Shown: positions 7,492 through 36,305 of the stretch, piece by piece
Layout of the letters: every line of letters starts with the position of its first letter
How positions within the stretch are numbered: position 1 is the first letter of the stretch
Source: a virus
Strand: one strand, 5' to 3'
DNA length: 64,000 nt
Virus record (IMG/VR): IMGVR_UViG_3300020039_000026
Program-made: the position numbers and the translations under genes
Notes under the pieces: model-generated
Told to the model about the DNA's origin: nothing
Database searches by the model: none
Seen by the model: the letters and a program-made list of their open reading frames with translations, nothing else

Positions 7492-8958
7492 ATGTTCGGT
7501 AAAAATCTTGGCGCTGTTGCGCCATTCATCTCCGAAGTTGCAGACAATCTGTTTGCAAACATTAACGGGGAAAGCTTCAACGACGACTGGTCGTTTTTGG
7601 CAGCGCTTCGTGCCATTCTGTTTAGGCGTATGCCAGAGGGTAATACCATCAATCTGTCGATCTACCGTAAGGACTACGGCAAAGATACGATTCATCGTTA
7701 CGAAGAAAACCCGGCTCCGCTCCTGAACGATCTGTTCGGCGATTCTCGTGACGCCATTCGCGTTATTAATTATCGGGCAGATGATGAGACGATCGCCGCG
7801 CTTTTTAAGCTCCTTGACGACGAGGAAAAGGGTTACGCGAAGTATTCCGGTTCTGAAGAACAAAAGGATATTGATTATTTCGTCAAAAATTACGTCAATG
7901 TCAGGTTCTATACGAACCGCGAGAAGCGCTCCGCAGTAATCCTTGTTCAGAACATGGATCTCCGGAAGTATCATTTCATCCAATGCTTCATCCCCAGGGC
8001 TCTGCCGTGGTATTTTGACGGGGAAGAAAATACCCTGGACGAACAGGAAGCTAAGCTGATTCGTTCTTTCCGTGAGAAGTATGCTCCGGAATACGAGGCC
8101 GCTATCGCTGCGCTCGGCGAACGCTTTGATTTCCGGAATGCCGCTATCAAAATGGTTCTGGGCAACTTTGAGAGGTATGCCAAGGAAGCGGAGGTCGGAA
8201 CGACCAGAAATACAATCAATGATATTCGCCGCCAAATCGCTGACAACGAGCAGCGATATAAGAATCTTCTTCAGACGCTGTATGATGCCAATATCCGGCT
8301 GAACGGACTGTTGAAGATGGCCAGTGATTGCGGCGATGAGTCCGAGCTTATTGATTATTTCAACCATAACAAGGCCATTACGCCTATTTCGACGCAAGGC
8401 ACCGCCCTCACGTTCATCGTCAAGACCTTCATTGAATTGTGGGACGAAAACATGTATGAAAAATACGCCGAGAATGGAGTGTTTTACAGAAACATCGGCG
8501 GAATTACCAACCCGGCTTTCGTCGATGTTGAAAAACGCAAGCGTTTCGCCGAGGAGCTTTTCTCTGACGACCCGCAATTCCGCGTGAAGGTCTGCGGAAT
8601 CTATACAATTGACATGCGCGGCGATGTTAATAGCGTGCGCAATTATACCTACCCGGCCGACTGCGCGGATTATCTCCCGAATCCGCATCTTCAGATTTTT
8701 GCCTGCATCGGCACCAACAGGCCGCACATCAAAGAGCTTCTCCGAAATGGGGACCCGATCACCGCCATCGAGCAGTGTATTGCTTCTTCCAAGGGGCTAA
8801 ACCTGTCCGAGGTCGAACAAACGATTCAGCCTTTTATGAAGTGGATTTTCAACTCCACCAAGAATATCATCCGCTTAAATGACGGGAGCGATGTAACTCC
8901 GGCTGAGGCTCTTGAGTGGCTGGACGAGCAGAAGAAAAAGAAGGAGGAAGATAAGTAA
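7492..8958 (+). CDS. Hypothetical 488-aa protein, translationally coupled to the downstream JAB gene
   Basis: Long ORF. Its stop overlaps the next ATG (TAATG). A C-terminal YLPNPHLQIFACIG segment is weakly reminiscent of an E2 HPN...C loop (unproven). Confidence 0.55.
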   Translation: MFGKNLGAVAPFISEVADNLFANINGESFNDDWSFLAALRAILFRRMPEGNTINLSIYRKDYGKDTIHRYEENPAPLLNDLFGDSRDAIRVINYRADDETIAALFKLLDDEEKGYAKYSGSEEQKDIDYFVKNYVNVRFYTNREKRSAVILVQNMDLRKYHFIQCFIPRALPWYFDGEENTLDEQEAKLIRSFREKYAPEYEAAIAALGERFDFRNAAIKMVLGNFERYAKEAEVGTTRNTINDIRRQIADNEQRYKNLLQTLYDANIRLNGLLKMASDCGDESELIDYFNHNKAITPISTQGTALTFIVKTFIELWDENMYEKYAENGVFYRNIGGITNPAFVDVEKRKRFAEELFSDDPQFRVKVCGIYTIDMRGDVNSVRNYTYPADCADYLPNPHLQIFACIGTNRPHIKELLRNGDPITAIEQCIASSKGLNLSEVEQTIQPFMKWIFNSTKNIIRLNDGSDVTPAEALEWLDEQKKKKEEDK

Positions 8959-9872
8959 TGCGACGGCCGATCGTATTGACGGATGAAATCATCGAAAAAA
9001 TGTCCCAGGAATTCATGGCGGCTTTGAAGGCTGCGAAACTGACTGACGGCGGCGTAAAGTACGAAAAAAAGTTCGTATACCCGGAAGAAGCCGGGAAGGA
9101 CAAGGCGATTGTCCTGTATGAGCCGAAAGCCTGGATCAAGCAGAAGCTCCTCCTGTATGAGTTCAGCACAGAAGTTGCCTGGCACGCCGTAGTAGAGCGC
9201 CGCGACGAAATCACTTTCGTTATCAAGGACATTTTGGTCTATCCCCAGGAAGTTACGGGAGGCACGGTCAACACCGACCAGGAGCTTTATCAGAAATGGA
9301 TGATGGAGCTTCCTGACGATGTGTACAACAACCTTCGCGGGCAGATGCATTCCCATGCAATTTTCGCCACCACCCCCTCCAGTGTTGACCTCACCCACCA
9401 GGAACGAATCCTGGACATGATGGGCGGCGACGACTACTATATCTTCTTCATTTGGAACAAGAAAATGGAGAAGACCGTCAAGATCTACGACATGGAAAAC
9501 AATATTCTCTACGAGAACGACGATGTTCTGGTAGAGGTAATCGACGAAGGCAGCGAGATGAACGAGCTTATCAGCTTCATCGGCGATTCCAACAACCATG
9601 TCAAAGCGAAGTCGTACACACAAGCCGGTTATTATTCCGGTTCCGCATACGGCGGCTCTGGTTACGATACCACCGGTAAGAAAGCGAAAGAGCCGAAGGC
9701 TGGCAAAAAGAGCAAGGAAACCGGGAAGGTTGCTGCCCAGCAGACCGCCCTTGCCCCATATAACGCAGGGAATCCGAATGTCGGCTATCAGGGGCAGACA
9801 CCCGGTAGTATTCTCGACCGTCATGATTCCTGGTATCGCAACCTTGTCGGCGACGGCGACGACCTGGATTAA
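8958..9872 (+). CDS. JAB/MPN (JAMM) metalloprotease-domain protein with Gly/Tyr/Ser/Lys-rich low-complexity C-terminal tail
   Basis: Exact JAMM motif H-x-H-x7-S-x2-D (HSHAIFATTPSSVD) with upstream Glu (EVAWHAVVE). 304 aa. Confidence 0.6.
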   Translation: MRRPIVLTDEIIEKMSQEFMAALKAAKLTDGGVKYEKKFVYPEEAGKDKAIVLYEPKAWIKQKLLLYEFSTEVAWHAVVERRDEITFVIKDILVYPQEVTGGTVNTDQELYQKWMMELPDDVYNNLRGQMHSHAIFATTPSSVDLTHQERILDMMGGDDYYIFFIWNKKMEKTVKIYDMENNILYENDDVLVEVIDEGSEMNELISFIGDSNNHVKAKSYTQAGYYSGSAYGGSGYDTTGKKAKEPKAGKKSKETGKVAAQQTALAPYNAGNPNVGYQGQTPGSILDRHDSWYRNLVGDGDDLD

Positions 9873-9884: not shown

Positions 9885-10556
9885 ATGGACCTGAGTAAAT
9901 CCTACGATTTTTTCAAACCTGAAATGTTACAGGGACGGGTTCATATCATCGGCTGTGGGGCGATCGGCTCCACAGTCGCTGAAAACCTGTGTCGCTTTGG
10001 TGTAACCAAAATGACCCTGTACGATTTCGACATTGTCGAACCTAAAAACATCGCAAACCAGATGTTTACGTCCGAGGATATTGGCAAGAAAAAGGTTCGT
10101 GCGGTTGCCGAGTATCTTCGGAAAATCAACCCTGAAATCGTTGATGACCTTCGCGTTTGTGAAAATGGTTATACCGATCAGCGGCTTTCTGGATATATCT
10201 TCCTGTGCGTCGATAACATTGATCTTCGCCGGAAGATCGCGGAGTCCTGCCGTGGAAATCCCTTTGTGAAGGGCATGTTCGATTTCCGGATGAGGCTCAC
10301 AGACGCGCAGCACTATGCGGCGGACTGGAGTGACGAGGGAATGATTCAGGCTTTCTTGAACAGCATGGCCTTTTCCCATGAGGAAGCCAAAGAGGAAACG
10401 CCCGTTTCTGCCTGCAATATCACCCTTAGTGTCTGTACCACGGTTCGTTCGGTTGTAGCGGCCGGTGTATCCAACTTCGTAAATTTCGTCAAGGGTCAGG
10501 GAATCAAAAAAATGATCCTTTGCGATTCCTTCTCGTTTGGCCTGGATGCTTTTTAA
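9885..10556 (+). CDS. Minimal E1-like ThiF/MoeB-family adenylyltransferase domain protein
   Basis: Rossmann motif HIIGCGAIGS, then LYDFDIVEPKNIANQ (E1/MoeB DxDxVExSNLNRQ-like), GKKKVRAVAEYLRKINPEI (MoeB INPxI motif) and LCVDNIDLRRKI (DCxDN-like). 223 aa with no CxxC zinc motif. AAGGAGG RBS. Confidence 0.65.
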   Translation: MDLSKSYDFFKPEMLQGRVHIIGCGAIGSTVAENLCRFGVTKMTLYDFDIVEPKNIANQMFTSEDIGKKKVRAVAEYLRKINPEIVDDLRVCENGYTDQRLSGYIFLCVDNIDLRRKIAESCRGNPFVKGMFDFRMRLTDAQHYAADWSDEGMIQAFLNSMAFSHEEAKEETPVSACNITLSVCTTVRSVVAAGVSNFVNFVKGQGIKKMILCDSFSFGLDAF

Positions 10557-10572: not shown

Positions 10573-11334
10573 ATGAAACTGAAAGAACTGCCGGTTGGAA
10601 ATCAAGTAGTTTTCGGCAGCTATGCCATGGATGGAAGTCATACATCCAAGGAATTGATTTGGACGAAGGTCACAGAAGACGGAAAATGCGTGTTAAAGCC
10701 AGATCAATTGAGCGGAAAGTTCGATTATCCGGAGCGTGGCGACGTTAATCGTGACCGCAAGGCGCATGGTTATAATTACTTCCCGATGGCAAACGTATTT
10801 CAGTTCATAAACTCGCCTGAAACTCAGTGGTTTCATCCGATGCATGAAGGCGACCGCGCTGGATACGATGCCAATCGCTGGGGTTTCCTGGCCTCATTCA
10901 CATCGGATGAAATCCGGCAGCTTCTTCCGCACGAAATCGAAATTGGCGTACCGGAAGGCTCCAGGAAGCAGCATGGCCGAAAAAACAAGCTGAAGTGTCT
11001 GGTTTCGCTCCCGTCGGCATCTCAATACCAGGAGACGGTCGATGATTATCTCCAGTGTGAGGGGGAGGTCATTCCTCTCCTGCAAAGAGACGGTGTTTTC
11101 CGTGGCTGGACGAGGAGCGGTGTTCTCGATTCGTGCCATGCATATGTGGCCAAATACGGATGGCTGGATGCATATCATTGTGATAATTCATTCACTATTT
11201 GCCCCATGGTCGTAATCAATCCTGAAAGCGAATTGACCCTTGATCCGGAAACCGGGCGTTATTACGTGAACATTCAATCGCAAGAAGAAGCGAGAATCAT
11301 GACTGATGATTTTCTCAATATGATTTTGAAATAA
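10573..11334 (+). CDS. Hypothetical protein, paralog of 5376-6149
   Basis: 253-aa ORF with GAGGTGAG RBS. Shared motifs with the paralog (FRGWTRSG vs RLWWLRSP; AYHCDN vs YAYHVR). Confidence 0.5.
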   Translation: MKLKELPVGNQVVFGSYAMDGSHTSKELIWTKVTEDGKCVLKPDQLSGKFDYPERGDVNRDRKAHGYNYFPMANVFQFINSPETQWFHPMHEGDRAGYDANRWGFLASFTSDEIRQLLPHEIEIGVPEGSRKQHGRKNKLKCLVSLPSASQYQETVDDYLQCEGEVIPLLQRDGVFRGWTRSGVLDSCHAYVAKYGWLDAYHCDNSFTICPMVVINPESELTLDPETGRYYVNIQSQEEARIMTDDFLNMILK

Positions 11335-11336
11335 AA

Positions 11337-11696
11337 TACTGCAATGCATAACCCGTTCTTTGAACGTGTGCTTTGTGCGTTACGCCAAAGTATCAAGATG
11401 CTGGAAAGAAGGATGACCGACCGCACTGGCAGCCGAAAGCACACCCTGAAGGCGCCATCCCCGGCAGGGTCTAATACCCAACCGACAGCAAACGTCGATC
11501 CCGGGATCCTACCATGCAACGATTTCACATGTACAACCTGGCAGCCCAATACAGCCATACGGAACATGCGAAAATCGTAAAATAAAATGCAATCGTCCGA
11601 AGACCGGCGCGTCGCCTCCAGGACAACCCAGATGACGACATCTCTACGATCGGACTCCTCTTCAGCAAGATCACCACAGGTACTCAGATTGCAGTA
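11337..11696 (+). ncRNA. Candidate retron msr/msd noncoding RNA. A 360-nt region bounded by inverted repeats a1 TACTGCAAT (11337-11345) and a2 ATTGCAGTA (11688-11696), ending 17 nt before the RT start.
   Basis: Perfect 9-bp inverted repeat (12 bp with one bulge) flanks the whole intergenic region, which is the retron a1/a2 layout. The interior is A/C-rich with a GATCCCGGGATC palindrome. No credible ORF. Confidence 0.4.
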
Positions 11697-11713: not shown

Positions 11714-12856
11714 ATGCCTTATATCACGGTAAGACAGCCTCCTCCCACACAACAGATTACATTCGATGATCTGTTTCTTTCGCCAAACGCCATTCCAAAT
11801 CTCCCGATGGCGGTAAAGCGGGATATGTCAGGTACGATCACGAGGTTCGTGAAGTGCCCTAAAAAGGAATTAGTCGAGAGAATCAACGTTCAGTCGCTTA
11901 TTGATGCTCTGGAAATTTTCAATACGAAATACGGTCAGCTTCATGCGGCAAAACGGCAGGATCTTTACCATACTTTCTATATCCCGAAGCACTCCGGCGG
12001 TTTAAGAAAAATCGACGAACCCAACGAAGAACTGATGTCTGCTCTCAGGGAGCTAAAGTCCATCTTTGAAAATAAAATGGGAGCTTTATATCATACGTCG
12101 GCGTTCGCCTATGTCCCTGGTCGTTCCACCGTGGACGCAATCAAGCGCCACCAAGCAAATGAGAGCAGGTGGTTCTTAAAAACGGATTTCTCCAATTTCT
12201 TCGGCTCTACAACCGAAGAATTTTTATTTGAGTCCACTTCTCTTATCTTTCCGTTCAGCGAAATGGTCAGGTACACGAATGGCCGGGTTCAGCTAAGGCT
12301 CGCCCTGTCCCTCTGCATGTTGAACGGCGGCTTGCCCCAGGGTACGCCCATTTCACCAATGCTCACCAATCTGATGATGATCCCGATTGATCACAGGATC
12401 TTCAACGAGCTTTCCAAGGAGGGTTTCGTATATACCAGGTACGCTGATGACATTCAGCTTTCCCATAAATTCGAGTTCGATTATAAAGGGAAGGTCGATT
12501 ACATCAATACCGTCGTCAAGAGCTTCAGAGGGCCGTTTGAAATAAAGCCTGAGAAAACGCGGTATGGTTCTTCCTCCGGACGAAACTGGAACTTGGGTTT
12601 GATGCTGAATAAGGACAACGATATAACTGTCGGATATCAGCGCAAGAAGCAATTCAAGGCCATGACGAATAACTTTATCGTGGATTATCTGAATCACACG
12701 CCATGGCCGAAGGAAGATGTCCAGCATTTGAACGGTCTCAAAAGCTACTACCTTATGGTCGAGCCTGAATACTTCAAGTATATGCTCAGCCATCTTGAAC
12801 AAAAGTACAGCATTGATTTTGAAACTATGATGAAAGCGGCCTTAAACGCGGAGTGA
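11714..12856 (+). CDS. Reverse transcriptase, retron-type by motifs
   Basis: RT motifs: FYIPKHSGGLRKI (motif 2), AYVPGRSTVDAIKRH, KTDFSNFFGS (motif A), LPQGTPISPMLTNLMM (motif B-prime), VYTRYADDIQLS (motif C, YADD). 380 aa, retron-sized. GGAGATG RBS. Confidence 0.75.
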   Translation: MPYITVRQPPPTQQITFDDLFLSPNAIPNLPMAVKRDMSGTITRFVKCPKKELVERINVQSLIDALEIFNTKYGQLHAAKRQDLYHTFYIPKHSGGLRKIDEPNEELMSALRELKSIFENKMGALYHTSAFAYVPGRSTVDAIKRHQANESRWFLKTDFSNFFGSTTEEFLFESTSLIFPFSEMVRYTNGRVQLRLALSLCMLNGGLPQGTPISPMLTNLMMIPIDHRIFNELSKEGFVYTRYADDIQLSHKFEFDYKGKVDYINTVVKSFRGPFEIKPEKTRYGSSSGRNWNLGLMLNKDNDITVGYQRKKQFKAMTNNFIVDYLNHTPWPKEDVQHLNGLKSYYLMVEPEYFKYMLSHLEQKYSIDFETMMKAALNAE

Positions 12857-12865: not shown

Positions 12866-12973
12866 ATGCGAAGCGGATATTATGTAGGTTACGGTTACAA
12901 GGGTCTCGTTCGCGGCGTTTGGATGCTGTTCGCAACGGAACAGGAGTATATCGAGTACCTCCAAAACGACTAA
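12866..12973 (+). CDS. Small Tyr/Gly-rich ORF (35 aa) immediately after the RT
   Basis: ATG preceded by GAGGTGA RBS. Short, so uncertain. Confidence 0.25.
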   Translation: MRSGYYVGYGYKGLVRGVWMLFATEQEYIEYLQND

Positions 12974-12991: not shown

Positions 12992-13747
12992 ATGAAGCCG
13001 CATAAATACAAGCCGATCTGCAAGGCTGGAGCGATGCTGCTCACAGAAGCCATCCTTTGGCAAGCTGGCCTTGATTGGCGAGAAAGTGACAGAATCCTCC
13101 AGCACAAAAATCGAAAGGACTTGCTGAGGCTGAAAAAGAACGTGGAGAGATTTTTCCGTTCTCAGTGGTTCGAGGATTTAACAGGGCTGGATGGGCGGGC
13201 GGTATTCCGCGAGCTCAGCGGCGGAAAGGATTTTATGAGCAAACCGTTTTGCACAGGCATGTACGGCGGAAAGTTTATGCCCATGCATAAAGGGCATCTG
13301 TACTGTCTAAAACAGGCATCGCGGCTGTGCGATAAAGTATATCTTATTTGCACGACAGGCGGTACGGACGAAGAAAGAATTGCGGGTGAAATTGAGCGCG
13401 GAGACACGGAGATCGGGGAATATCTTACCCCGGAATTTCGGCTGGAGCAAATCAAGCGTGCGGCCGCTATGCTTGATAACGTCGTCCCGGTCATGGTAGA
13501 TTTATCTTCCTGCCGCGATGAAAATGGCAATGAGGATTGGGATATGGAAACGCCCATTATCCTTGAAGCCTGCGGCGAACCCTTCGATGCCGTTTTTGGC
13601 AGCGAAGAATCCTATGCTCCGTACTTCAACCGGGCATATCCCGGTGCAGAGTACGTTTTGATAGATTGCGACCGGGCAGAGGTTCCTATCAGCGCGACAA
13701 AAGTTCGCGCCATGTCCAAGGACGAAGCGAAAGGATGGATGGTGTAA
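12992..13747 (+). CDS. NadR-type nicotinamide-nucleotide adenylyltransferase (NMNAT domain only) with about 85-aa N-terminal extension
   Basis: GGKFMPMHKGHLYCLKQASRLCDKVYLI matches the E. coli NadR NMNAT segment [34 protein letters not shown] matches ISGAQIR. No ribosylnicotinamide kinase domain. GAAGGAGG RBS. Confidence 0.65.
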   Translation: MKPHKYKPICKAGAMLLTEAILWQAGLDWRESDRILQHKNRKDLLRLKKNVERFFRSQWFEDLTGLDGRAVFRELSGGKDFMSKPFCTGMYGGKFMPMHKGHLYCLKQASRLCDKVYLICTTGGTDEERIAGEIERGDTEIGEYLTPEFRLEQIKRAAAMLDNVVPVMVDLSSCRDENGNEDWDMETPIILEACGEPFDAVFGSEESYAPYFNRAYPGAEYVLIDCDRAEVPISATKVRAMSKDEAKGWMV

Positions 13748-14467
13748 GTGTTTCATCTGGATTTCAAAAGAAGTTTCAAAAGCCTGAAATGGTACGAATG
13801 GGTCATGGCGATCATTATGATTGCCATTGCAGCTTGGGCGATGGTCTCCGCGTTCATCCATCCCAGTCCCAACGGGAACCCCGCCTGGTTGACCGTAATC
13901 AACTTCGTTAGCGCAGTGTGCGGGGTGATCTGCATCTTCTTCTGCGCTAAGGCAAACATCGGCAACTACATATTCGGCATCATCAACACGGTCGTATATG
14001 CCATTTACCTGATGTACTGGAAGATATACGGCACTTTCTTCCTGGAGGTTCTGTACTACCTGCCCACCAATATTGCCGGATGGTATCTCTGGACATGCTA
14101 TCGCGATTCCGATGATAGGAATATTACCATGTCCAAAAAATTGACGCCGAAACAAAACGCAATCGTTGCATTGTTCGTTGCTGCGACAACGGTGTTATAC
14201 CATGCAATTCTCGTTGCTGTGGGCGGCAATGTTGCCTGGTTGGATGCGGCCACCGTTGCCATCGGCCTTGTAGCCACATTCCTGCAAATGAAGCGATACA
14301 GAGAACAGTATGTATGGTGGCTTATCACAGACGTGGTTGCTGTCGCCATGTATATTGTTCATTTCGATCCCGTGTATCTCACGAAGAAATCAATCTATCT
14401 GATTATGGCGATTATCGGCTTAATTAACTGGGTTAAACTCAGCCAGAAAAATGTCGCCAACGAATAA
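13748..14467 (+). CDS. pnuC: PnuC-family nicotinamide riboside transporter
   Basis: 239 aa, about 7 predicted TM helices, PnuC-like aromatic-rich pattern (WYLW, NxxxW). Classic pnuC-nadR adjacency. Confidence 0.6.
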   Translation: MFHLDFKRSFKSLKWYEWVMAIIMIAIAAWAMVSAFIHPSPNGNPAWLTVINFVSAVCGVICIFFCAKANIGNYIFGIINTVVYAIYLMYWKIYGTFFLEVLYYLPTNIAGWYLWTCYRDSDDRNITMSKKLTPKQNAIVALFVAATTVLYHAILVAVGGNVAWLDAATVAIGLVATFLQMKRYREQYVWWLITDVVAVAMYIVHFDPVYLTKKSIYLIMAIIGLINWVKLSQKNVANE

Positions 14468-15082: not shown

Positions 15083-15159
15083 CTGGGTGTAGCGAAGCTT
15101 GGTATCGCGCTTGATTTGGGATCAAGAGATCGCGGGTTCAAGTCCCACCACCCAGACCA
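15083..15159 (+). tRNA. tRNA-Pro (anticodon TGG), CCA encoded
   Basis: Acceptor CTGGGTG/CACCCAG, D-stem GCGA/TCGC, anticodon stem CTTGA/TCAAG with loop TTTGGGA, T-arm GCGGG-TTCAAGT-CCCAC (one C-A mismatch), ACCA end. Confidence 0.7.
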
Positions 15160-15556
15160 TTGGAAAGCGCATCTTTCCAATCTGTATGAAAGACTACCGT
15201 GAGCGGAGGACGCAGCGGATAGGCACCATGATGTCACGTCTTTTGTATAGAAAACGAATCAAAATACGATATATGATAGGCGTAGGCTACTGCGGCTTTA
15301 TTAAGAAGAAACGGATGCTACCCTGATGCGCGGGGAGCGGCAGTGAAAAGTTCCGTGTCGCATGATGATTCCTGGTTACATATGTAGATTGGGTGGTACG
15401 CGAGATCATCCAGGGCGAAGAAGCTGAAGTTCGTTCCGGATAGAAGAAACTGAGCATACGAGGAGCGGTCCGGAGAGGGTATGGAGAACCTCTGATATAA
15501 GTTCTGCCATGCGTTGTAGTTTGCTTGGTTTCGCCAGGATTCATCATGCAATGTGA

Positions 15557-15629
15557 GGGGCCGTAGCTCAATCGGCAGAGCGCCTGCTTTGCAAGCAGGA
15601 GGTAAGGGGATCGTAACCCCTCGGCTCCA
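15557..15629 (+). tRNA. tRNA-Ala (anticodon TGC) with non-canonical T-loop ATCGTAA
   Basis: Acceptor GGGGCCG/CGGCTCC (G3-U70 pair typical of tRNA-Ala), D-stem GCTC/GAGC, anticodon loop TTTGCAA, T-arm AGGGG-ATCGTAA-CCCCT. No CCA encoded. Confidence 0.6.
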
Positions 15630-15659
15630 TTCCTATTTGACTGTTCCGGAGGTTTTCCC

Positions 15660-15833
15660 ATGGCTGAATCGCAAGAGTATACGATCGTGTTTACGCCGGA
15701 TTGCTTTCACCCGGATATCAAAATCACCATTGCAGTACCGGCCGACCATGACGCGGAAGAATACATCGACCAGTATCTGGAATCCATTCTAAATAATAAT
15801 ATCCTGTATAACTGCGAATGGTCGTTTGCTTAA
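15660..15833 (+). CDS. Small hypothetical protein (57 aa)
   Basis: ATG ORF below the ORF-track size cutoff. Plausible acidic small protein between tRNAs. Confidence 0.3.
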   Translation: MAESQEYTIVFTPDCFHPDIKITIAVPADHDAEEYIDQYLESILNNNILYNCEWSFA

Positions 15834-15919
15834 TTGACCGCTTCAACATTTTGGGATATCAAACGTAATAAACACGTTACCTGCTGGATGCCGCTTCCCG
15901 AACATCCGAAGGAGAAAAC

Positions 15920-16105
15920 ATGAAGTGCAAAGACTGTAAATACTGGCAGATGGAAGATGAACCACCCGGCATCTCAGAGTTTATGGAATGTACACGCATT
16001 GACGAAAACGACCCTGACTGGTGGAAGAAGTGGCATTTTCGCGGGCCGGAAGATTCATGCGAATACGGGGAAAAGAAAGGAAGTTGGCAATCGCCCTTTG
16101 GATAG
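15920..16105 (+). CDS. Small Cys-rich protein
   Basis: 61 aa with GGAGAAAACATG RBS. CKDCKYW...C...C pattern suggests a zinc-binding fold. Confidence 0.35.
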   Translation: MKCKDCKYWQMEDEPPGISEFMECTRIDENDPDWWKKWHFRGPEDSCEYGEKKGSWQSPFG

Positions 16106-16162
16106 AGCCCTGTGTGAAATCCTCCGCATAGTGCAGAATGCTTTTCAGTTACGCAGCTCTAT

Positions 16163-16247
16163 GTCCCTGTGGTGGAATTGGCAGACGCGGGGGAATTAAA
16201 ATCCCTCGTCTTCGGACGTGTGAGTTCAAATCTCACCAGGGACACCA
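16163..16247 (+). tRNA. tRNA-Leu (anticodon TAA), class II with long variable arm, CCA encoded
   Basis: Acceptor GTCCCTG/CAGGGAC, D-arm GTGGTGGAATTGGCAGACGC (Leu-like), anticodon loop ATTAAAA, variable hairpin CGTC-TTCG-GACG, T-arm GTGAG-TTCAAAT-CTCAC, ACCA. Confidence 0.7.
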
Positions 16248-16249
16248 AA

Positions 16250-16570
16250 GGAATAACTGAAAAACGGGTTGGGAGGAAACAAGCTTTATTCTCGCTGCCA
16301 CCCAAAGGCAGAGAAGCAGATGGCGTACTGCACCCGTCACATAGCGTAGGTTATTCCATCCTGATGTATCCCGGCGAACAGGCCAAAAGCCGGGTGGTGG
16401 AGTGGACCCAGAGGGACGACGCGTGGGGGTGGTATCCTACGCAAATAAACCGCCAGCACAACGACTCCCTGTAGCTGGTAAACCAAAAGGCAGGCGTTTT
16501 CGTGGAGGGATACCGTAGAAGCGGAACGCAGAAGGCCAATGGTATGGGATTTACATTCATGCGGTTTGCC
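16250..16570 (+). ncRNA. Structured noncoding region with a conserved hairpin motif (16362-16398) and nested inverted repeats
   Basis: No ORF. GGAATAAC (16251) pairs with GTTATTCC (16349). GCGTAGG (16342) pairs with CCTACGC (16439). Motif TGATGTATCCCGGCGAACAGGCCAAAAGCCGGGTGGT recurs at 16652 with compensatory stem changes. Confidence 0.35.
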
Positions 16571-16575
16571 CATAA

Positions 16576-16648
16576 GGCTCCTTAGCTCAATCTGCAGAGT
16601 ATCTGACGATTAATCAGTATGATGTTGGTTCAAATCCAGCAGGAGCCA
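16576..16648 (+). tRNA. tRNA-like gene with non-canonical anticodon loop CGATTAA (G at position 33, nominal anticodon ATT). Identity unassigned.
   Basis: Perfect 7-bp acceptor GGCTCCT/AGGAGCC, D-arm GCTC-AATCTGCA-GAGT, T-arm GTTGG-TTCAAAT-CCAGC, 73 nt. Anticodon stem TCTGA/TCAGT has a terminal T-T mismatch and the loop lacks U33. Confidence 0.4.
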
Positions 16649-16649
16649 G

Positions 16650-17010
16650 ATTGATGTATCCCGATGAACAATAAAAATCGGGTGGTATGCTGTGGCTACA
16701 GGCGGAGTAGCGCTCCGCAGGGCTCCCGTTCCTAACCCTGGCCATGAATGCCTGTGGGGCTCATGGCCAAAGAACGGCTTCTGTGCGGGTAGCCTGGCGG
16801 CGATGGGTTCGATTCCCATGACTCGCGCAAGTGGCCGGGTAGCGCCCGGCTGATGTGAGCGTCCGCGCAACACCTCACAAAGAATGACAATGGCCGCTGA
16901 AAACGTACTTCGGCACATGTCCGGTCGCATGACTTCCCTCGACCGTCAGGGTGCATGACACGATCCGTCAGCGAAGCACGATAATCTAAGCGGCAAGCGC
17001 CCATTTCAGT
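16650..17010 (+). ncRNA. GC-rich structured noncoding region starting with the second copy of the covarying hairpin motif (16651-16686) and containing a tRNA T-arm-like element ATGGG-TTCGATT-CCCAT (16808-16824)
   Basis: Only antisense-looking ORFs. Multiple local hairpins (GGCGGAGTAGCGCTCCGC, GGCCATGAATGCCTGTGGGGCTCATGGCC). The T-arm-like element is followed by GACTCGC, which could pair with GCGGGTA upstream as a minihelix. Confidence 0.3.
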
Positions 17011-17094
17011 AATTCATTTGAAAGGTGGTATACATATGGAAATCCTGTTAACCAAGAAATCCCCTATGTGTATGCACGCCAGTAAGGAGTCACT

Positions 17095-17499
17095 ATGAGC
17101 AATTGGACACATGTAGCGGCCATCGTCCGCCTGGACTGTATTCGTCCACTGTATGACAGGGATCCTAATATGGATGACCTGTTCGGAAAAGAATGTTTGT
17201 GGGATGCGCCGGGAGAAGTTCGGAGCGACGCGGAGAAGCATCCTGAAAACTACCTGCCAACCGGAAGCGAGGGAAGCCTGCATAAAAGCGTGTGGATTAA
17301 TCCGAACCGTCAGGAGATTCCCGCCTTTGTCATTTCCATTTTCGGTGATCTGCGCGATCATGATTCTTCCCAGGAAATCATTGAGTGGTTTAAGAAGAAA
17401 TGCGAAAAGGCGATGGAGTTCCATTGCTTTATTCGCAATGCTGTGATTACTGCGGAGAATGAATGCAATGGTTCCGCGCATTGGGAGTACGAAGAATAG
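17095..17499 (+). CDS. Hypothetical protein
   Basis: 134-aa ORF with AAGGAG RBS. Confidence 0.5.
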   Translation: MSNWTHVAAIVRLDCIRPLYDRDPNMDDLFGKECLWDAPGEVRSDAEKHPENYLPTGSEGSLHKSVWINPNRQEIPAFVISIFGDLRDHDSSQEIIEWFKKKCEKAMEFHCFIRNAVITAENECNGSAHWEYEE

Positions 17500-17574
17500 G
17501 CCGAATGATCCCGTACATCAAACGTTCCCGAATTACGGTGGTAAGCTGACCGGCGAAAGCCTACGCGCCGAAAA

Positions 17575-17596
17575 TCGGATTTATGCCCGCCCGGTT
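17575..17596 (+). terminator. Hairpin terminator candidate just upstream of tRNA-Gly
   Basis: GCCCGCC-CGGTT-GGCGGGC followed by TTTG. Confidence 0.4.
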
Positions 17597-17668
17597 GGCG
17601 GGCTTTGCAGCCGTAGTGTAATGGCAATCACACCGTCCTTCCAAGTCGGGTTTGCGGGTTCGAGTCCC
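17597..17668 (+). tRNA. tRNA-Gly (anticodon TCC)
   Basis: Acceptor GCAGCCG/CGGCTGC, anticodon stem CCGTC/GTCGG (one T-T mismatch), loop CTTCCAA, T-arm GCGGG-TTCGAGT-CCCGT. No CCA. Confidence 0.6.
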
Positions 17669-17673
17669 GTCGG

Positions 17674-17775
17674 CTGCTTTTATGGGAGAGTAACCAAGAG
17701 GTCAAAGGTGCGAGACCGTAAATCTCGCGTTCTGATATGCCGCGCTAAAACAGAACTTCGCTGGTTCAAATCCAG
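17674..17775 (+). tRNA. tRNA-Tyr-like (anticodon GTA) with unusually long 28-nt variable arm and C at position 33. About 102 nt, possibly aberrant.
   Basis: Acceptor GGGAGAG/CTCTCCC with one extra nt before it. Tyr-like D-arm AACCAAGAGGTCAAAGGT. Anticodon stem CGAGA/TCTCG with loop CCGTAAA. Variable arm GTTCTG-ATATGCCGCGCTAAAA-CAGAAC. T-arm GCTGG-TTCAAAT-CCAGT. Confidence 0.4.
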
Positions 17776-17783
17776 TCCTCTCC

Positions 17784-17872
17784 CATTTTCTTTGGAAGGT
17801 TGGCTGAGCCTGGCTGAAAGCACCGGTCTTGAAAACCGGCAGCCCCAAAAGGGGCTCGTGGGTTCAAATCCC
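17784..17872 (+). tRNA. tRNA-Ser (anticodon TGA), class II
   Basis: Acceptor GGAAGGT/ACCTTCC with G73 discriminator, anticodon stem CCGGT/ACCGG, loop CTTGAAA, variable hairpin AGCCCC-AAAA-GGGGCT, T-arm GTGGG-TTCAAAT-CCCAC. Confidence 0.7.
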
Positions 17873-17905
17873 ACACCTTCCGCTTTTTGATTGGAGGAAT
17901 AAATC

Positions 17906-18325
17906 ATGACGGAATATCAACGGCAGGCAGAAGATTTTTTAGCCCGCAGCGGGACGACCATGAAAATCACACGCGACGGCGATGTGCGCGGCTTCCCGTT
18001 TGACAAAAGCGATCATCATATGCATGAGAAGTATCTCATCTCCATGCGTCGCGGCTGTCGCTCCTATGAGTTTCCTTTTTATGACTGTGCGGCGAACTTC
18101 CACACAAACAAGCGGCCAACCGCATATGATGTTCTGTCTTGTCTGGAAAAGTACGAAGTACCATCGGATGATTGGGATTTTGCACATGAGTTCGGCTACG
18201 ACATCCACGATAAAGAAAGCTTCAATCGCGTGTCCAAAATCCGTAAGGCGTGTGAAGAGCAATATGCCGCCCTGTATCTTATGTTCGGGGATCAATGGAT
18301 GGAAGAACTTAGGCAAATCAACTAA
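17906..18325 (+). CDS. Hypothetical protein
   Basis: 139-aa ORF with GGAGGAATAAATCATG RBS. Confidence 0.5.
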   Translation: MTEYQRQAEDFLARSGTTMKITRDGDVRGFPFDKSDHHMHEKYLISMRRGCRSYEFPFYDCAANFHTNKRPTAYDVLSCLEKYEVPSDDWDFAHEFGYDIHDKESFNRVSKIRKACEEQYAALYLMFGDQWMEELRQIN

Positions 18326-18382
18326 CCTATTGTCTGTTCATGAAAAGGATTAAGAATAGATAATCCAAAGCAGGTACTCCTT

Positions 18383-18787
18383 TTGGTTGTAAATGGGGGA
18401 ATATCTTTGTATATCCGAAAAAGTATCCATTCCATTGAGTCCGTCTACGAAGCCGTTCATGATACGATGTTCAATCCGAAAACCACATACATCCTATTCG
18501 ATGGCGATGAAATCAAAAGCACAAGTCAGCGCTATCAGGTATTTTTTACAAAAGGGATTCGCTGCGTTTCGTGCGGCATCGAAGGGAAATATTTTGCCAA
18601 GGAAAAAGGGCATGGTTCATCACAAGATCGCTATCACCTTAATTTATACGCCATTGACGAAAATGGCAAGGAAGTCCTGATGACCAAAGACCATATCATC
18701 CCAAGATCAAAGGGTGGTTTGAATCGTCTGGAAAACTATCAAACGATGTGTCAAATCTGCAATAGCAAAAAGGGAAGCGAACATTGA
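18383..18787 (+). CDS. HNH endonuclease, free-standing
   Basis: C-terminal HNH motif HIIPRSKGGLNRLENYQTMCQICNSKKGSEH with CxxC zinc ligands. Confidence 0.6.
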   Translation: MVVNGGISLYIRKSIHSIESVYEAVHDTMFNPKTTYILFDGDEIKSTSQRYQVFFTKGIRCVSCGIEGKYFAKEKGHGSSQDRYHLNLYAIDENGKEVLMTKDHIIPRSKGGLNRLENYQTMCQICNSKKGSEH

Positions 18788-18794
18788 TAGGTCT

Positions 18795-19595
18795 ATGGAT
18801 AAAGCATGGGTACAAGAAAAGGAAGCACAAAGGGCTGAAGAAATACGGCTTACCAAAGAAACTATCCGCCGGAAAATCTTAGACGCAGGGCTTCAGGAAT
18901 ATGTCGATGTTCTCTTAGCTGGCGTAGATAAGAGCTTTGATCTTCACGTATCATTTTTGTGCGGTTCAATAGAAATACTTGACGCAATTAAGAAGAAAAC
19001 TACTGGCAACAAAGAGCTATTTGCTTCTATTATCGAAAAGTATTGCTTGTTTGAGCATAGCATCCGCGAAGAGTTGGAAAAACTTTTTCAGCTTAAATAC
19101 AGCTTCCAGCAATTTTCCGACTCAGATCTGGTCGAGTTTGATGGGGATATTATCATTACAGATCCTTGCTATGTCATGCGAGACGACGCCGAAGATGATT
19201 GGGAAAAGTGTTCTTGCGGCGAGAACATGGACGAACTCGGCATCCATCACTTCATGAGCCGCAGTACCATTATTGGCGACTGGAGCTGTACTGTCTACAA
19301 TACAGATAATCATAGGAAGATAGGTGAGTTCTGCGCCGATGCGGGAATGGTTTCTGTTCTCCTGCTAAATGAAGTCCTTCAATACAATCCGTCCTTCGAC
19401 TATCATATAAATAGGAAGTGGACGACGGCGCTGATAAAGAATTTCAAAGGAACCGTTCAGTTTGTTGTTCACGAGGTACACTTTGAGTACAATGGCGAAG
19501 ATCATGTGGGCTACGAGGTGGAAGTAGTTGGGCATGGTGTCAATAAGAAAACCGGCAAGCCTTTCAACTTTTCGTCAAGACAAACCGGGTTATAA
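18795..19595 (+). CDS. Hypothetical protein
   Basis: 266-aa ORF. Confidence 0.5.
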   Translation: MDKAWVQEKEAQRAEEIRLTKETIRRKILDAGLQEYVDVLLAGVDKSFDLHVSFLCGSIEILDAIKKKTTGNKELFASIIEKYCLFEHSIREELEKLFQLKYSFQQFSDSDLVEFDGDIIITDPCYVMRDDAEDDWEKCSCGENMDELGIHHFMSRSTIIGDWSCTVYNTDNHRKIGEFCADAGMVSVLLLNEVLQYNPSFDYHINRKWTTALIKNFKGTVQFVVHEVHFEYNGEDHVGYEVEVVGHGVNKKTGKPFNFSSRQTGL

Positions 19596-19631
19596 AATTA
19601 CGCTTTTATTAATCGATAAGGAGGTAAACCT

Positions 19632-20042
19632 GTGGCATTTTGGAATAAAAAGAAGAAAAAAGATGAAAAGCAGGAACTTCCTATTAAAATATTATCCCCT
19701 TGCGAGCGTGGTGAACACCGTTACAAGGATTTTGATTGGTATATCAAAACATATGTTGATCAGTCCTATTATAACAACCGATATGTCGTTACGGTGATCG
19801 AACCATATGTCTGCATCCATTGCGGGCACCGCGAAGATCAGGAACTCGGCAAATGGATTTTTGCAAAGAAAACGGATAAAACCGCATTCGTTGAGCATCT
19901 CAGCAAGAATCCAAACATCAAGCCAATCATCGAAGTGGAAGACGCCATTCACGATATGCAGCTTGTCGATCGAGAGTATCTTTCAATTTTTCAGCAGCTC
20001 CATCCAGATAAAAAGATTTTGGATGAAGCCAAGCCGGATTAA
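19632..20042 (+). CDS. Hypothetical protein with Cys/His pairs
   Basis: 136-aa ORF with AAGGAGG RBS. CERGEHRY...CIHCGH suggests a zinc-binding fold. Its 3-prime end overlaps the tRNA-Thr start. Confidence 0.5.
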   Translation: MAFWNKKKKKDEKQELPIKILSPCERGEHRYKDFDWYIKTYVDQSYYNNRYVVTVIEPYVCIHCGHREDQELGKWIFAKKTDKTAFVEHLSKNPNIKPIIEVEDAIHDMQLVDREYLSIFQQLHPDKKILDEAKPD

Positions 20043-20105: not shown

Positions 20106-20107
20106 CT

Positions 20108-32436: not shown

Positions 32437-32973
32437 TTGACTACCAAAAAATATCTTGTTGTTATCGACATGCAGAATGATTTTATCGACGGTTCTCTTG
32501 GCACCAAAGAAGCTCAGGCTATTGTCCCGCGTGTCGTTGATCGAATCAAGGAATGTATCAATGAAGGTTACGAGGTATTCGCCACGCAGGACACACACGG
32601 CAACGATTACCTTGATACGACGGAGGGTAAATACCTTCCCGTGCGACACTGCATTGACGGAAGTCCGGGGCATGAAATCCCGCAGGAGATTCTGGAACTC
32701 ATTCCGCAAAACAATATCATCATCAAGAATACATTTGGCTCCATCCCGCTCGGATATACCCTTCAATGGCGACCGGCGGCCTGCGAAAATGTCATTATTG
32801 AATTGGTTGGCCTGTGCACGGATATCTGCGTTGTCACCAACGCGCTGCTTCTTAAAACGTTCCTTCCAAACGCAATCATTCGGGTCAACGCGGCTTGCTG
32901 TGCTGGCGTAACGCCAGAATTGCACGAAGCCGCGCTTAAAACAATGAAATCGTGCCAGATTGAAATCATTTAA
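32437..32973 (+). CDS. pncA: Nicotinamidase / isochorismatase-family cysteine hydrolase
   Basis: LVVIDMQNDF (Asp), IIKNTFGS (Lys) and GLCTDICV (Cys) form the isochorismatase/PncA catalytic triad. 178 aa. Confidence 0.7.
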   Translation: MTTKKYLVVIDMQNDFIDGSLGTKEAQAIVPRVVDRIKECINEGYEVFATQDTHGNDYLDTTEGKYLPVRHCIDGSPGHEIPQEILELIPQNNIIIKNTFGSIPLGYTLQWRPAACENVIIELVGLCTDICVVTNALLLKTFLPNAIIRVNAACCAGVTPELHEAALKTMKSCQIEII

Positions 32974-32984: not shown

Positions 32985-33770
32985 ATGACTTATCGTTTTG
33001 ATCCAGTTCGTGTGCGGGATGAGCTTGTCTCTCAAATCAGAGAATACATGAACGGCCAGGGGATTGAAAGGGTTGTTGTCGGAATTTCTGGTGGTAAAGA
33101 CTCCACCGTCACTGCCGCCCTGTGCGTAAGAGCCCTCGGAAAAGAAAATGTATTCGGCGTTATGCTTCCCGATAAGGTTCAGTTGGATATATCCGATAGC
33201 TTAAAGGTATGCCGTGTGCTGGAAATTCCTCATACAGAAATCAACATTGGGGCTGCGCACATAGAGCTGCTCAGGGCAATTGACTTGGCGAATGATCGCA
33301 GTGAGCATGAATATTTCGATGTCCTCTTCTCTCCCGAAAGCGACATCAATATCGGTCCCAGGCTGCGTATGACAGCGCTCCGGTATATTACACAGGCACT
33401 CGGAGCACGGCTTGCCGGGACAGGGAATTTGTCCGAAATTACCGTCGGTTATTGCACGAAGGACGGAGATACTTCATGCGACCTCTCCGTTCTTGGGAAC
33501 TTGACCAGCGAGGAGGTCGTGCAGGTTGGCCTAACCATGGAAGAGCTTCCGCGTGAACTGGTCGTGAAGACTCCGTCCGACGGTCTCTCTGGTATGTGCG
33601 ACGAAGAGAAGCTCGGTATCCTCTATTCAGATATTCATCAATATATCCGTTTTGGAACAAGCGGAAACAGCGAGATTGATCTGAAAATATACCAAAAGCA
33701 TTGTGCGAATCTCCACAAGTTTATGAAGCCATATACGCTGATCCCGCCCGTATGGAGTGATGAATATTGA
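32985..33770 (+). CDS. nadE: NH3-dependent NAD+ synthetase
   Basis: PP-loop VVVGISGGKDSTVTAAL. Size and overall pattern match NadE. 261 aa. Confidence 0.8.
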   Translation: MTYRFDPVRVRDELVSQIREYMNGQGIERVVVGISGGKDSTVTAALCVRALGKENVFGVMLPDKVQLDISDSLKVCRVLEIPHTEINIGAAHIELLRAIDLANDRSEHEYFDVLFSPESDINIGPRLRMTALRYITQALGARLAGTGNLSEITVGYCTKDGDTSCDLSVLGNLTSEEVVQVGLTMEELPRELVVKTPSDGLSGMCDEEKLGILYSDIHQYIRFGTSGNSEIDLKIYQKHCANLHKFMKPYTLIPPVWSDEY

Positions 33771-34387
33771 AAAGAATACTTGCCTTCTTTGGCGCGTTTA
33801 ATCCCCCAACAAAAGCCCATATCGAATTGGCAGAACTCGCCATGAAGAAAACCTGCAGCGAAGAGGTTATCTTTATTCCATCGCAAAGTGAATATATTAC
33901 CGAGATTCAAAAGAAGAATTTCGCTTTTGAAGATGGCGAACGCATATATATGTTAGATAGCCTCATACAAAACCATCCTTGGCTTAACGTTTGCAATCAT
34001 GATATCGTAGCCGATATGCAGCCAAGGACATATGAGACGCTATGCTGGCTTCGGGATAGGTTCGGCATCAAGCCAAAGCTGCTAATTGGCGAGGATCAAT
34101 TTCTACAAATGGAAACTGCTTGGAAAAATGTGCCCGAGATAGCCAAAGAATTCGGCATTGTCGTTATGTCTCGGCCGTTTTCTTTCGCAAACTCATACAT
34201 CAAAAACACTCCGTTCTATCAAAGTATCGCGCAATATGTCACAGAAATAGAAGCGCCGTCCGCATACAAAGGAATGTCGTCAACAGACGTAAGAGAGCAT
34301 ATTCAACAGGCAAAGGCACATATTGATTCAATTAAGCGTATCGTGCCGGAGGAAGTCCTCCGCTATATCAAGGAGAATTACCTATGA
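33767..34387 (+). CDS. nadD: Nicotinate-nucleotide adenylyltransferase-like cytidylyltransferase
   Basis: FGAFNPPTKAHIEL (HxGH-type), MSSTDVRE (ISSTxIR-like) and VLRYIKENYL C-terminus are typical of NadD. 206 aa. Translationally coupled to both neighbours. Confidence 0.7.
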   Translation: MKRILAFFGAFNPPTKAHIELAELAMKKTCSEEVIFIPSQSEYITEIQKKNFAFEDGERIYMLDSLIQNHPWLNVCNHDIVADMQPRTYETLCWLRDRFGIKPKLLIGEDQFLQMETAWKNVPEIAKEFGIVVMSRPFSFANSYIKNTPFYQSIAQYVTEIEAPSAYKGMSSTDVREHIQQAKAHIDSIKRIVPEEVLRYIKENYL

Positions 34388-35586
34388 AACTTGAACCAAT
34401 TATCCAATCTCTGCTTGACACCGACTTGTATAAGTTCAATATGAACCAGGTCATGTTCCATTTTCATTCGGATTTATGGGGAGAATATGATTTCAAATGC
34501 AGAAACCAAGGCGTGGTTTTTACGGAAGAAATGCTGCAGGAAATCTACGAGCAGATCAAGCACCTTTGTGCCCTCCGGTTCACCGACGACGAACTGAATT
34601 ATCTGCGTTCCATCCGCTTTATTAAACCGGATTACGTCGAATTCCTCCGTCTTTGGCATCCTATCGAAAAGTATGTTTCGATTGGCCTGTATGACAGCGG
34701 AGAATTGTCTGTCAGGGTTTCCGGCCCTCTGTTTTCCGCAATGCAATTCGAGATCTACCTGCTGGAAATTATCAATGAAGTGTATTTTCGTATGCATCCG
34801 GAATACTCTTACAACGCGCTGGTAGGAAGCGCGAGAGGTCTTTTGCACGATAAGATCTTGAATTTCAAAAATGGCAATTATACATTCAACTTTGCCGAGT
34901 TCGGCTGCCGCCGTCGTTTATCCCGCGAATGGGAGGACGAAATGATTCAGATGTTCGTCGATAACAACATCAGAAACATGGTTGGCACTTCCAATGTGTA
35001 CTTGGCCAAGAAATACGGTCTTACTCCAATCGGCACATTCGCCCATGAGTTCGTCCAAATGTACCAGGGAATTCCAAAAATCCCGCTGGCTTATACGAAT
35101 TATTACGCACTTAAGGATTGGTATAACGAATACAAAGGGGATAACGGCACAGCGCTTACGGACACGATCACTACCGATTTATTCCTTCTGGATTTCGACC
35201 GTAGCATGTGCAACAACTTTACCGGCGTCCGCCATGATTCCGGCGATCCATATGTATGGGGCGATAAGATGATTGCTCATTACCAGAAGTATGGCATCGA
35301 CCCAAAAACCAAAACACTTCTGTTCTCCGACAGCCTGAATTTCAAAAAAGCACAGGCGCTGTACGATTATTTTAAAGATCGCGCCAAGGTTTCCTTTGGT
35401 ATCGGCACATTTGTTTCCAACGATACCATAGCCACTCCTCTCAATATCGTTATCAAGCTCCAGTCCGTTAATGGGAACCCGGTTGCCAAGCTCTCAGATT
35501 CTGAAGGGAAAACCATGTGCCGCGATCCACAGTACATTGATTACTTAAAGAACGCGGTTCGGTTCAGGTTAAACCGTGACAGCTAA
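34384..35586 (+). CDS. pncB: Nicotinate phosphoribosyltransferase
   Basis: N-terminus IIQSLLDTDLYKFNMNQVMFHFH matches E. coli PncB ([22 protein letters not shown]). 400 aa. Confidence 0.8.
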   Translation: MKLEPIIQSLLDTDLYKFNMNQVMFHFHSDLWGEYDFKCRNQGVVFTEEMLQEIYEQIKHLCALRFTDDELNYLRSIRFIKPDYVEFLRLWHPIEKYVSIGLYDSGELSVRVSGPLFSAMQFEIYLLEIINEVYFRMHPEYSYNALVGSARGLLHDKILNFKNGNYTFNFAEFGCRRRLSREWEDEMIQMFVDNNIRNMVGTSNVYLAKKYGLTPIGTFAHEFVQMYQGIPKIPLAYTNYYALKDWYNEYKGDNGTALTDTITTDLFLLDFDRSMCNNFTGVRHDSGDPYVWGDKMIAHYQKYGIDPKTKTLLFSDSLNFKKAQALYDYFKDRAKVSFGIGTFVSNDTIATPLNIVIKLQSVNGNPVAKLSDSEGKTMCRDPQYIDYLKNAVRFRLNRDS

Positions 35587-36280: not shown

Positions 36281-36305
36281 AAGCTATAATACGAGGAGAG
36301 TAGAA

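Follow-up and report, generated by a model that had tools for sequence, protein, structure and literature searches.

A kinase-less NadR-type NMN adenylyltransferase and a PnuC transporter form a probable NAD+ salvage cassette in a phage of gut Clostridia

Introduction

What can a phage gain from a NadR-type nicotinamide mononucleotide (NMN) adenylyltransferase (NMNAT) that lacks the ribosylnicotinamide kinase (RNK) domain and is encoded next to a PnuC-type transporter? This question is raised by the virus record IMGVR_UViG_3300020039_000026, of which we analyzed a 64-kb stretch, here called the window; all results given for the window cover those 64 kb. A preliminary description had placed the NMNAT in an open reading frame (ORF) at 12992-13747 and the transporter in an ORF at 13748-14467, and the ORF listing contained both at these positions on the plus strand. 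The two genes probably represent an NAD+ salvage cassette, made up of PnuC and an RNK-less NadR-family NMNAT, that stems from Firmicutes and is carried by a phage of gut Clostridia.

NAD+ reconstitution by phages is an active topic, with NARP1, NARP2, and NARP3 as the pathways described. The 2024 NARP paper reported that phage NadR genes usually reside in an operon with PnuC and proposed them as a further NAD+ reconstitution pathway. This pathway, NARP3, was shown in August 2026 (Sci Adv 2026, PMC13464706). The PnuC protein Bas30_87 imports nicotinamide riboside (NR), and Bas30_86, which consists of RNK and NMNAT and has no helix-turn-helix (HTH) domain, turns it into NAD+. In this way, NARP3 makes up for the NAD+ depletion caused by Sir2-HerA and DSR1, an effect that is lost upon mutation of either the RNK or the NMNAT site (PMC13464706). 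Furthermore, pncB-nadD-nadE clusters and pnuC have been described in gut jumbo phages (Microbiome 2024, PMC11662467).

Results

The ORF at 12992..13747 (plus strand) translates into a fusion protein of 251 amino acids (aa), in which a small-phage-protein domain precedes an RNK-less NMNAT of the NadR type. Its ATG is located 8 nt downstream of AAGGAGG, a strong Shine-Dalgarno (SD) sequence. The NMNAT domain (13235..13747, plus strand) was assigned to the NadR family of HIGH-type nucleotidyltransferases on the basis of TIGR01526, matches to NadR structures in the PDB, and Foldseek. The NCBIfam model TIGR01526 (nadR_NMN_Atrans) matched with an E-value of 1e-17 over model positions 3-144 of 325, and the match to the NMNAT half of NadR covers residues ~87-240 of the ORF. 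HMMER reproduced the alignment to E. coli NadR, including the ISGAQIR motif, that had previously been made by eye. PHROG 3462 ('nicotinamide-nucleotide adenylyltransferase') was matched with an E-value of 2.8e-25, and the four top sequence matches in the PDB are all NadR proteins, namely 9x6f, 8x7f (E. coli), 1lw7 (H. influenzae), and 6gye (L. lactis). An AlphaFold2 model of the enzyme, with a predicted local distance difference test (pLDDT) value of 88, had 1lw7 and 8x7f as its top Foldseek matches (E 4-6e-9). PPAT and NadM followed as weaker matches (E~1e-5), and some homologues of the enzyme have weak precomputed matches to Citrate_ly_lig.

The window enzyme contains the motifs G93-K-F-M-P-M-H-K-G-H102 (HxGH) and ISATKVR. 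Across 60 homologues, G93-K-F-x-P-x-H-x-G-H102 and I233-S-A-T-x-x-R239 are invariant or almost so. The top PDB match, 9x6f, is a 357-aa 'nicotinamide-nucleotide adenylyltransferase'. We infer that this is Bas30_86, since each of the 11 residues that the NARP3 paper names fits at a constant offset of 6. When the site-2 residues of Bas30_86 were mapped via the HMMER alignment, 7 of the 11 mappable ones were identical in the window enzyme (K10 to K94, F11 to F95, F110 to F202, S112 to S204, V139 to V231, and I141 to I233, plus the adjacent W/Y). The chain ends 12 residues past ISATKVR, which leaves no room for an RNK domain. Thus, this domain is absent, and the claim of a kinase-less enzyme was borne out by both the chain end and the restriction of the TIGR01526 alignment to the first part of the model. 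Judged from its sequence, ORF 12992-13747 encodes a NadR-family NMNAT domain without a kinase.

The N-terminal extension had been noticed before and is indeed present; its length is, however, 81 aa and not ~85 aa. This domain (12992..13234, plus strand) is a member of phrog_7024 (E 6.5e-13), and AlphaFold2 modeled it as a four-helix fold (pLDDT 93). It had no fold match in the PDB at E<1, no Pfam match even at E<=1, and no match in NCBIfam. The possibility that it represents the HTH domain of NadR was rejected on these grounds and in view of its phrog_7024 membership. Homologues of the 81-aa domain were obtained by an exhaustive HMMER search, as a word-index search returned none. The four closest full-length homologues (P0001-P0004) are 60-94% identical to the fusion ORF overall and 37-95% identical in their N-terminal parts alone; the segment is missing from all other homologues. 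The phrog_7024 family comprises 98 representative clusters, nearly all with members of 66-185 aa and one of 4,292 aa, and a fusion to NMNAT occurs among them only in the window's own clade. Cultured Ruminococcus and Erysipelothrix phages carry the phrog_7024 gene between a helicase gene and a small downstream gene, for which one of these phages has the annotation transcriptional regulator. At L131 (the loci compared here are cited by their L numbers), the phrog_7024 member has a gene of its own that follows, after a few small ORFs, a reverse transcriptase (RT) gene of the same type as that located upstream of the window cassette. From these comparisons, we read the N-terminal domain as a small phage protein whose fusion to the NMNAT is specific to this lineage. 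The internal Met82 lines up with the start of standalone NMNAT homologues of ~165 aa, and the weak SD sequence in front of it leaves room for a short isoform of the enzyme, which may be initiated at this codon.

The second ORF (13748..14467, plus strand; 239 aa) encodes a PnuC-family transporter, and its GTG start codon begins with the base right after the NMNAT stop codon. The equivalog model TIGR01528 scored 120.2 bits against a cutoff of 42.45, thus roughly threefold over the threshold, and covered positions 3-185 of 187. In agreement with this, Pfam PF04973 (NMN_transporter) matched with an E-value of 3e-38 (131.8 bits against a cutoff of 27.3), PDB entry 4qtn aligned with residues 46-234 (E 5e-23), and the protein was placed in phrog_1880. 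A hydropathy scan yielded ~7-8 hydrophobic segments, where the preliminary description had given seven transmembrane segments. The protein shares 66% identity with the PnuC encoded in the L008 phage lineage. An apparently truncated pnuC in the gene call of L004 was dismissed, because tblastn showed the full-length frame to be intact. Overall, the profile searches placed the two ORFs in the NMNAT and PnuC families, and not in a cytidylyltransferase or a non-PnuC membrane family.

No RNK homologue was found in the window. The NadR protein of phage Kirov aligned in tblastn with its NMNAT half only, and neither phmmer with two RNK domains nor a hidden Markov model of the phage-cassette kinase gave a match. 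Pfam scans of essentially all window ORFs, run as a concatenated sequence, revealed neither AAA_28 nor any other small-molecule kinase, and a Walker-A scan of the window proteins retrieved DnaB and PhoH only. As a positive control, the RNK query detected the full NadR of the human faecal phage scaffold L001 (E 4e-39). The term "kinase-less" applies to the enzyme and to the 64-kb window, not to the whole genome, as ~50 kb of the phage lies beyond the window.

Several observations weigh against a role of the pair in NAD+ salvage. The fusion ORF remains far below the curated thresholds: for the whole protein, TIGR01526 gave 64.4 bits (cutoff 341) and the equivalog NF005988 gave 25.8 bits (cutoff 201). 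The low TIGR01526 score is explained by the fact that half of the model has no counterpart in the window enzyme, so that only the NMNAT half aligns. A second point is that NARP3 requires RNK activity, and none is encoded in the window. By its predicted gene content, the window pair alone cannot turn NR into NAD+; if NR is the compound imported, the pathway has a gap that only a kinase from the host would close. The third point concerns the transporter. According to the HMMER alignment to 4qtn, only one of four NR-contact residues reported for N. mucosa PnuC is identical in the window PnuC: Y242 is kept as Y217, whereas Q124, Q196, and N214 are replaced by N108, T177, and D195, respectively. 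NR, or possibly NMN, is therefore a putative substrate. Bas30_87, the PnuC of NARP3, relies on a triad other than that of N. mucosa PnuC.

In the absence of a kinase, NMN might be provided by a host NR kinase, by direct passage of NMN through this PnuC subfamily, or from intracellular NMN. We consider direct import because three of the four NR-contact residues differ and because the PnuC of Bacillus mycoides serves as an NMN exporter in metabolic engineering.

The RNK-less architecture is widespread. Among the database homologues of the enzyme, the 120 best all have 150-265 aa and are too short to accommodate an RNK. In a survey of bacterial and archaeal contigs with one genome per species, we collected 80 loci of the RNK-less NMNAT clade (L015-L094; for example L089, L043, and L032), mostly from Clostridia, Lachnospiraceae, Oscillospiraceae, Erysipelotrichaceae, and Bacilli of gut and rumen. 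PnuC is encoded directly downstream on the same strand in 74 of these loci, and no RNK was found within 8 kb of the clade NMNAT in any of the 80. The regulator NrtR (NUDIX plus NrtR_WHD) follows right after PnuC in 21 of the 80 loci. In ~10 of them, pncA, pncB, nadE, or nadD is part of the same cluster, as in L089 with the order pncA-pncB-NMNAT-PnuC-nadE-nadD. By its distribution, the RNK-less pair is a conserved cassette and not a truncation, and the phage most likely captured it from Firmicute hosts. The literature we searched contained no description of an RNK-less NMNAT-PnuC operon, which is not proof that none exists. Other neighbors of the cassette in the 80 loci include a Macro-HTH protein (10 loci) and a radical-SAM protein (17 loci).

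Phages carry the cassette as well. IMG/VR contained 27 loci of the RNK-less clade, with PnuC adjacent to the NMNAT in 26 of them and pncA, pncB, or nadE nearby in several, and sister phages of the window possess the same NMNAT-PnuC cassette. NadR-like matches were present in 373 records of the phage collection and PnuC matches in 755, and many of these are annotated as such; Bacillus phage Kirov, for instance, has an adjacent and annotated pnuC-nadR pair. A P-loop kinase family of ~175 aa was matched in 14 of the 27 RNK-less viral loci. In 13 of them, the kinase gene borders directly on the cassette and lies either in front of the NMNAT gene or between PnuC and pncA, and it is found likewise in the L008-L011 lineage of 137-140 kb. 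A query with this kinase, an AAA_33 protein, returned 25 viral loci. In 18 of these, an NAD gene is located no more than 5 kb away, and in 3 the kinase co-occurs with an RNK-bearing NadR. Loci with the AAA_33 kinase are L008 (7195-7710), L097, L100-L109, L117, L118, L120, and L133-L156. It was found neither in the window or its close relatives nor in the 80 bacterial loci. The nearest characterized relatives are PSTK, Pnkp, and T4 PNK, which are 5'-OH polynucleotide or tRNA kinases. In view of these relatives and of the co-occurrence with RNK-bearing NadR, the idea that the 171-aa kinase beside PnuC in sister phages is a split RNK was no longer upheld as a firm claim. We regard the AAA_33 protein as an NAD-cluster-associated kinase and no more than a possible RNK substitute.

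A second set of NAD genes is located 18 kb downstream of the cassette, where four consecutive plus-strand ORFs, with overlaps at two of their junctions, each scored above the family threshold. They encode a pncA-like nicotinamidase of the isochorismatase family (32437..32973; PF00857, E 6e-22), a single-domain NAD synthase, nadE (32985..33770; PF02540, E 1e-42), a nicotinate-nucleotide adenylyltransferase, nadD (33767..34387; TIGR00482, 114.1 bits against a cutoff of 112.45, and Pfam CTP_transf_like), and a nicotinate phosphoribosyltransferase, pncB (34384..35586; NAPRTase, PF04095, E 1e-65, and NAPRTase_N, PF17767, E 1e-29). The preliminary description had named the same four genes and had seen in them, together with the cassette, a broad NAD+ supply kit, an idea that is supported. 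The pncA homologues cluster with the NMNAT-PnuC cassette in both bacterial and viral loci. The six phage NAD genes mirror the bacterial gene set, and this NAD context backs the functional assignment. The ORFs flanking the operon (31952-32422 and 36264-36797) had no informative matches. A PemK/MazF-type toxin gene (31283-31714; Pfam E 1.3e-23) is located ~700 nt upstream of the pncA operon, and no antitoxin was identified.

Upstream of the cassette, ORF 11714-12856 encodes a retron-like RT (retron_St85_RT, 180 bits, below the cutoff of 235). The segment of ~340 nt directly upstream of the RT (11337-11696) is a candidate for a noncoding RNA (ncRNA). It is flanked by a 9-bp inverted repeat, TACTGCAAT / ATTGCAGTA, that is kept in L005, L006, and L015; the corresponding repeat of L008, AACCGTAAT / ATTACGGTT, shows two compensatory double changes. 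A repeat-flanked segment 5' of an RT corresponds to the layout of a retron msr-msd, for which it is a candidate. No Rfam retron ncRNA matched, and neither msDNA nor an effector was identified. A conserved ORF of 35 aa with its own SD sequence (12866-12973; MRSGYYVGYGYKGLVRGVWMLFATEQEYIEYLQND) lies between the RT gene and the NMNAT fusion gene and had no family match. It was called in L003, and L006 and L007 have ORFs that agree with it in position and in their length of 35 aa.

Just upstream of the RT is a block of genes at 7492-8958, 8958-9872, 9885-10556, and 10573-11334 that includes a ThiF/E1-like protein (Pfam E 1.5e-25). Two genes precede ThiF, one for a 304-aa protein that contains a JAMM-like motif (HSHAIFATTPSSVD) and the other for a 488-aa protein without a family match, and a gene for a 253-aa protein comes after it. 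The block, which may represent a ubiquitin-like conjugation or deconjugation set, is kept in L003-L006, and ThiF alone was seen there in the L008 lineage.

The carrier is a temperate phage of anaerobic gut Clostridia with a genome of ~106-114 kb, and its host probably belongs to the Lachnospiraceae. An identical NMNAT protein is encoded, with conserved gene order, in contigs of 114 kb (JGI 3300011008) and 106 kb (ENA), and a close relative of the window was binned in a Lachnospiraceae metagenome-assembled genome. By DnaE, the closest cultured relatives are the Clostridioides phages LIBA2945 and LIBA6276 (132-134 kb, 42% identity). Megablast of the locus against cultured phages gave no match, and protein-level relatives among them are distant, with ~33% identity in the best-ranked matches. 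The window ORFs are mostly on the plus strand and include genes for replication (DnaB, primase, and a split DNA polymerase III alpha) as well as ERF recombinase, an ATP-dependent DNA ligase, PhoH, ClpP, FolD, dUTPase, and the anaerobic NrdD/NrdG. The PHP, core, and finger domains of polymerase III alpha are encoded at 44285-46426 and its HhH C-terminal part at 47342-48235, with an HNH/NUMOD homing-endonuclease ORF (46607-47209) in between. An excisionase-like HTH_17 protein and a tyrosine integrase, both encoded at 59451-61035 (59.4-61.0 kb), identify the phage as temperate. Minus-strand ORFs and a transposase-HTH ORF (61062-63778) come after the integrase gene, and a lysogeny or cargo region may occupy the right end of the window.

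Further genes of the window relate to RNA or to ADP-ribose. Eight tRNA genes, and a weak ninth at 17685-17784, accompany an RNA-repair set that comprises a Thg1-like tRNA-His guanylyltransferase, RlaP, an RNA ligase with a PHA02142 OB domain, and HAD_SAK_2 (array and set at 15083-20181, 20206-22006, 37204-38295, and 42745-43233). This combination suggests a defense against tRNA-targeting nucleases. A Macro domain protein (40579-41016), encoded upstream of DnaB and related to ADP-ribose binding or hydrolysis, represents a further NAD/ADP-ribose-related function. Between the ClpP-like gene and folD, the Rfam skipping-rope sRNA RF02924 was detected at 56839-56913 (57.6 bits, gathering threshold 36.7).

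Discussion

On the reading that we consider probable, PnuC would bring a pyridine nucleoside into the infected cell, presumably NR as for characterized PnuC proteins and possibly NMN, and the NMNAT would join NMN and ATP to NAD+. PncA, PncB, NadD, and NadE would in parallel convert nicotinamide to NAD+ by the deamidated Preiss-Handler route, with the nicotinamide arising as the product of SIR2/TIR-type NADases. In combination, the two routes would maintain or restore the NAD+ pool of the infected cell. By analogy to NARP2 and NARP3, the selective benefit would most likely be resistance to NAD+-depleting defense.

NARP3 is the closest of the known phage systems in that an adjacent PnuC and an HTH-less NadR-family NMNAT are phage-borne. 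The window system differs in its RNK-less enzyme, in an NMNAT-domain identity of only ~25-30%, in its hosts (gut Firmicutes as opposed to Enterobacteriaceae), and in the additional phrog_7024 domain and full nicotinamide-to-NAD operon. Logic, fold, and motifs are shared with the bacterial NadR-PnuC salvage of NR in H. influenzae, L. lactis, and enterobacteria. Canonical NadR, however, combines NMNAT with RNK, with or without an HTH domain, whereas the window enzyme belongs to a separate NMNAT-only clade of ~165 aa. As in the gut-phage clusters (PMC11662467), pncB-nadD-nadE and pnuC are phage-borne, although the window phage, with ~110 kb, is not a jumbo phage. NARP2 (Nampt plus NMNAT) likewise rebuilds NAD+ from nicotinamide; the window route, by contrast, is a four-step deamidated one that starts with PncA and does without Nampt. 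Compared with these clusters and NARP2, the window adds the RNK-less NMNAT-PnuC pair 18 kb away. The preliminary description had placed the gene set outside the published pathways. This holds with regard to NARP1 and NARP2, but the combination of PnuC and NadR had already been proposed in 2024 and was then shown as NARP3. Phage PnuC plus NadR and Preiss-Handler gene clusters are thus already known, and the claim of novelty has been overtaken. New here is an RNK-less enzyme that most likely stems from Firmicutes and has a small phage protein as its fusion partner.

The absence of a kinase can be interpreted in more than one way. Tentatively, the pair might be a self-sufficient pathway, and not a truncated NARP3, that gut Firmicutes conserve and their phages captured repeatedly. 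PnuC would import either NMN or NR, the latter being converted by an unrelated kinase, and the NMNAT would then trap NMN as NAD+. The AAA_33 protein would then be a new kinase of the NAD pathway, for example a non-orthologous NR kinase, and in the window lineage the enzyme would in addition be tethered to the phrog_7024 protein.

Rather unlikely, in our view, is an incomplete or partly decayed module of the NARP3 type. On this reading, the NMNAT would add little and PnuC would mainly feed NR into the nicotinamide route, via a host nucleosidase or phosphorylase and then PncA-PncB-NadD-NadE, or else the pair would be a neutral passenger. The lack of RNK or another small kinase in the 64 kb is in line with decay, as is the finding that the window phage lacks the adjacent kinase present at roughly half of the related phage loci with an RNK-less cassette. 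The position of pncA directly beside PnuC in several loci (e.g., L114, L115, L066, and L091) fits as well. Decay is, however, difficult to reconcile with the retention of the pair as an intact, overlapping two-gene unit in the 74 bacterial loci, which represent many families. Since the catalytic residues are invariant in addition, the data point to a functional enzyme under selection. Moreover, three independent metagenome assemblies contain NMNAT and PnuC of the window in intact form, and both are likewise intact in relatives with as little as ~60% identity.

Alternatively, the enzyme could be a nucleotidyltransferase for another substrate, such as NaMN, a nucleotide, or a cofactor precursor, encoded beside a PnuC homologue for another nucleoside or vitamin. 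Pnu-type transporters include subfamilies for other vitamins, and the divergent NR-contact residues, the weak Citrate_ly_lig matches of the homologues, and the PPAT and NadM hits in Foldseek would be compatible with such a role. The best profile, sequence, and fold matches nevertheless consistently indicate a NadR NMNAT, the PnuC score is threefold over the curated equivalog cutoff, and the cassette is surrounded by NAD genes and the gene for NrtR, a regulator of NAD metabolism, instead of genes for another vitamin pathway. We therefore consider this alternative quite improbable.

The placement of the cassette after the RT, which had been regarded as noteworthy, reflects synteny within one phage lineage and not a functional module, because the cassette occurs without the RT and L131 has the RT without the cassette. 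That NMNAT-PnuC acts as an effector or accessory module of the adjacent RT and its candidate ncRNA is hardly credible: relatives at ~60-76% identity do share the order RT, small ORFs, NMNAT, PnuC, and the N-terminal domain of the fusion is a standalone gene in the downstream set of the L131 RT, yet no RT is nearby in 79 of the 80 bacterial and 26 of the 27 RNK-less viral loci (within 10 kb in the remaining viral one), four genes including a DNA ligase gene separate RT and cassette in the L008 lineage, and at L131 the RT and the small genes are present but NMNAT-PnuC is not.

If the pair indeed serves NAD+ salvage, phages of gut Firmicutes carry a differently built version of NAD+ reconstitution, taken from a widespread bacterial cassette. 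Should the pair not work alone, it would be part of an ordinary auxiliary metabolic gene set. Should it work alone, this would imply either NMN uptake by this PnuC subfamily or an unrecognized NR kinase, and the finding would matter for how gut microbes exchange vitamin B3 and for the escape of phages from NAD+-depleting immunity.

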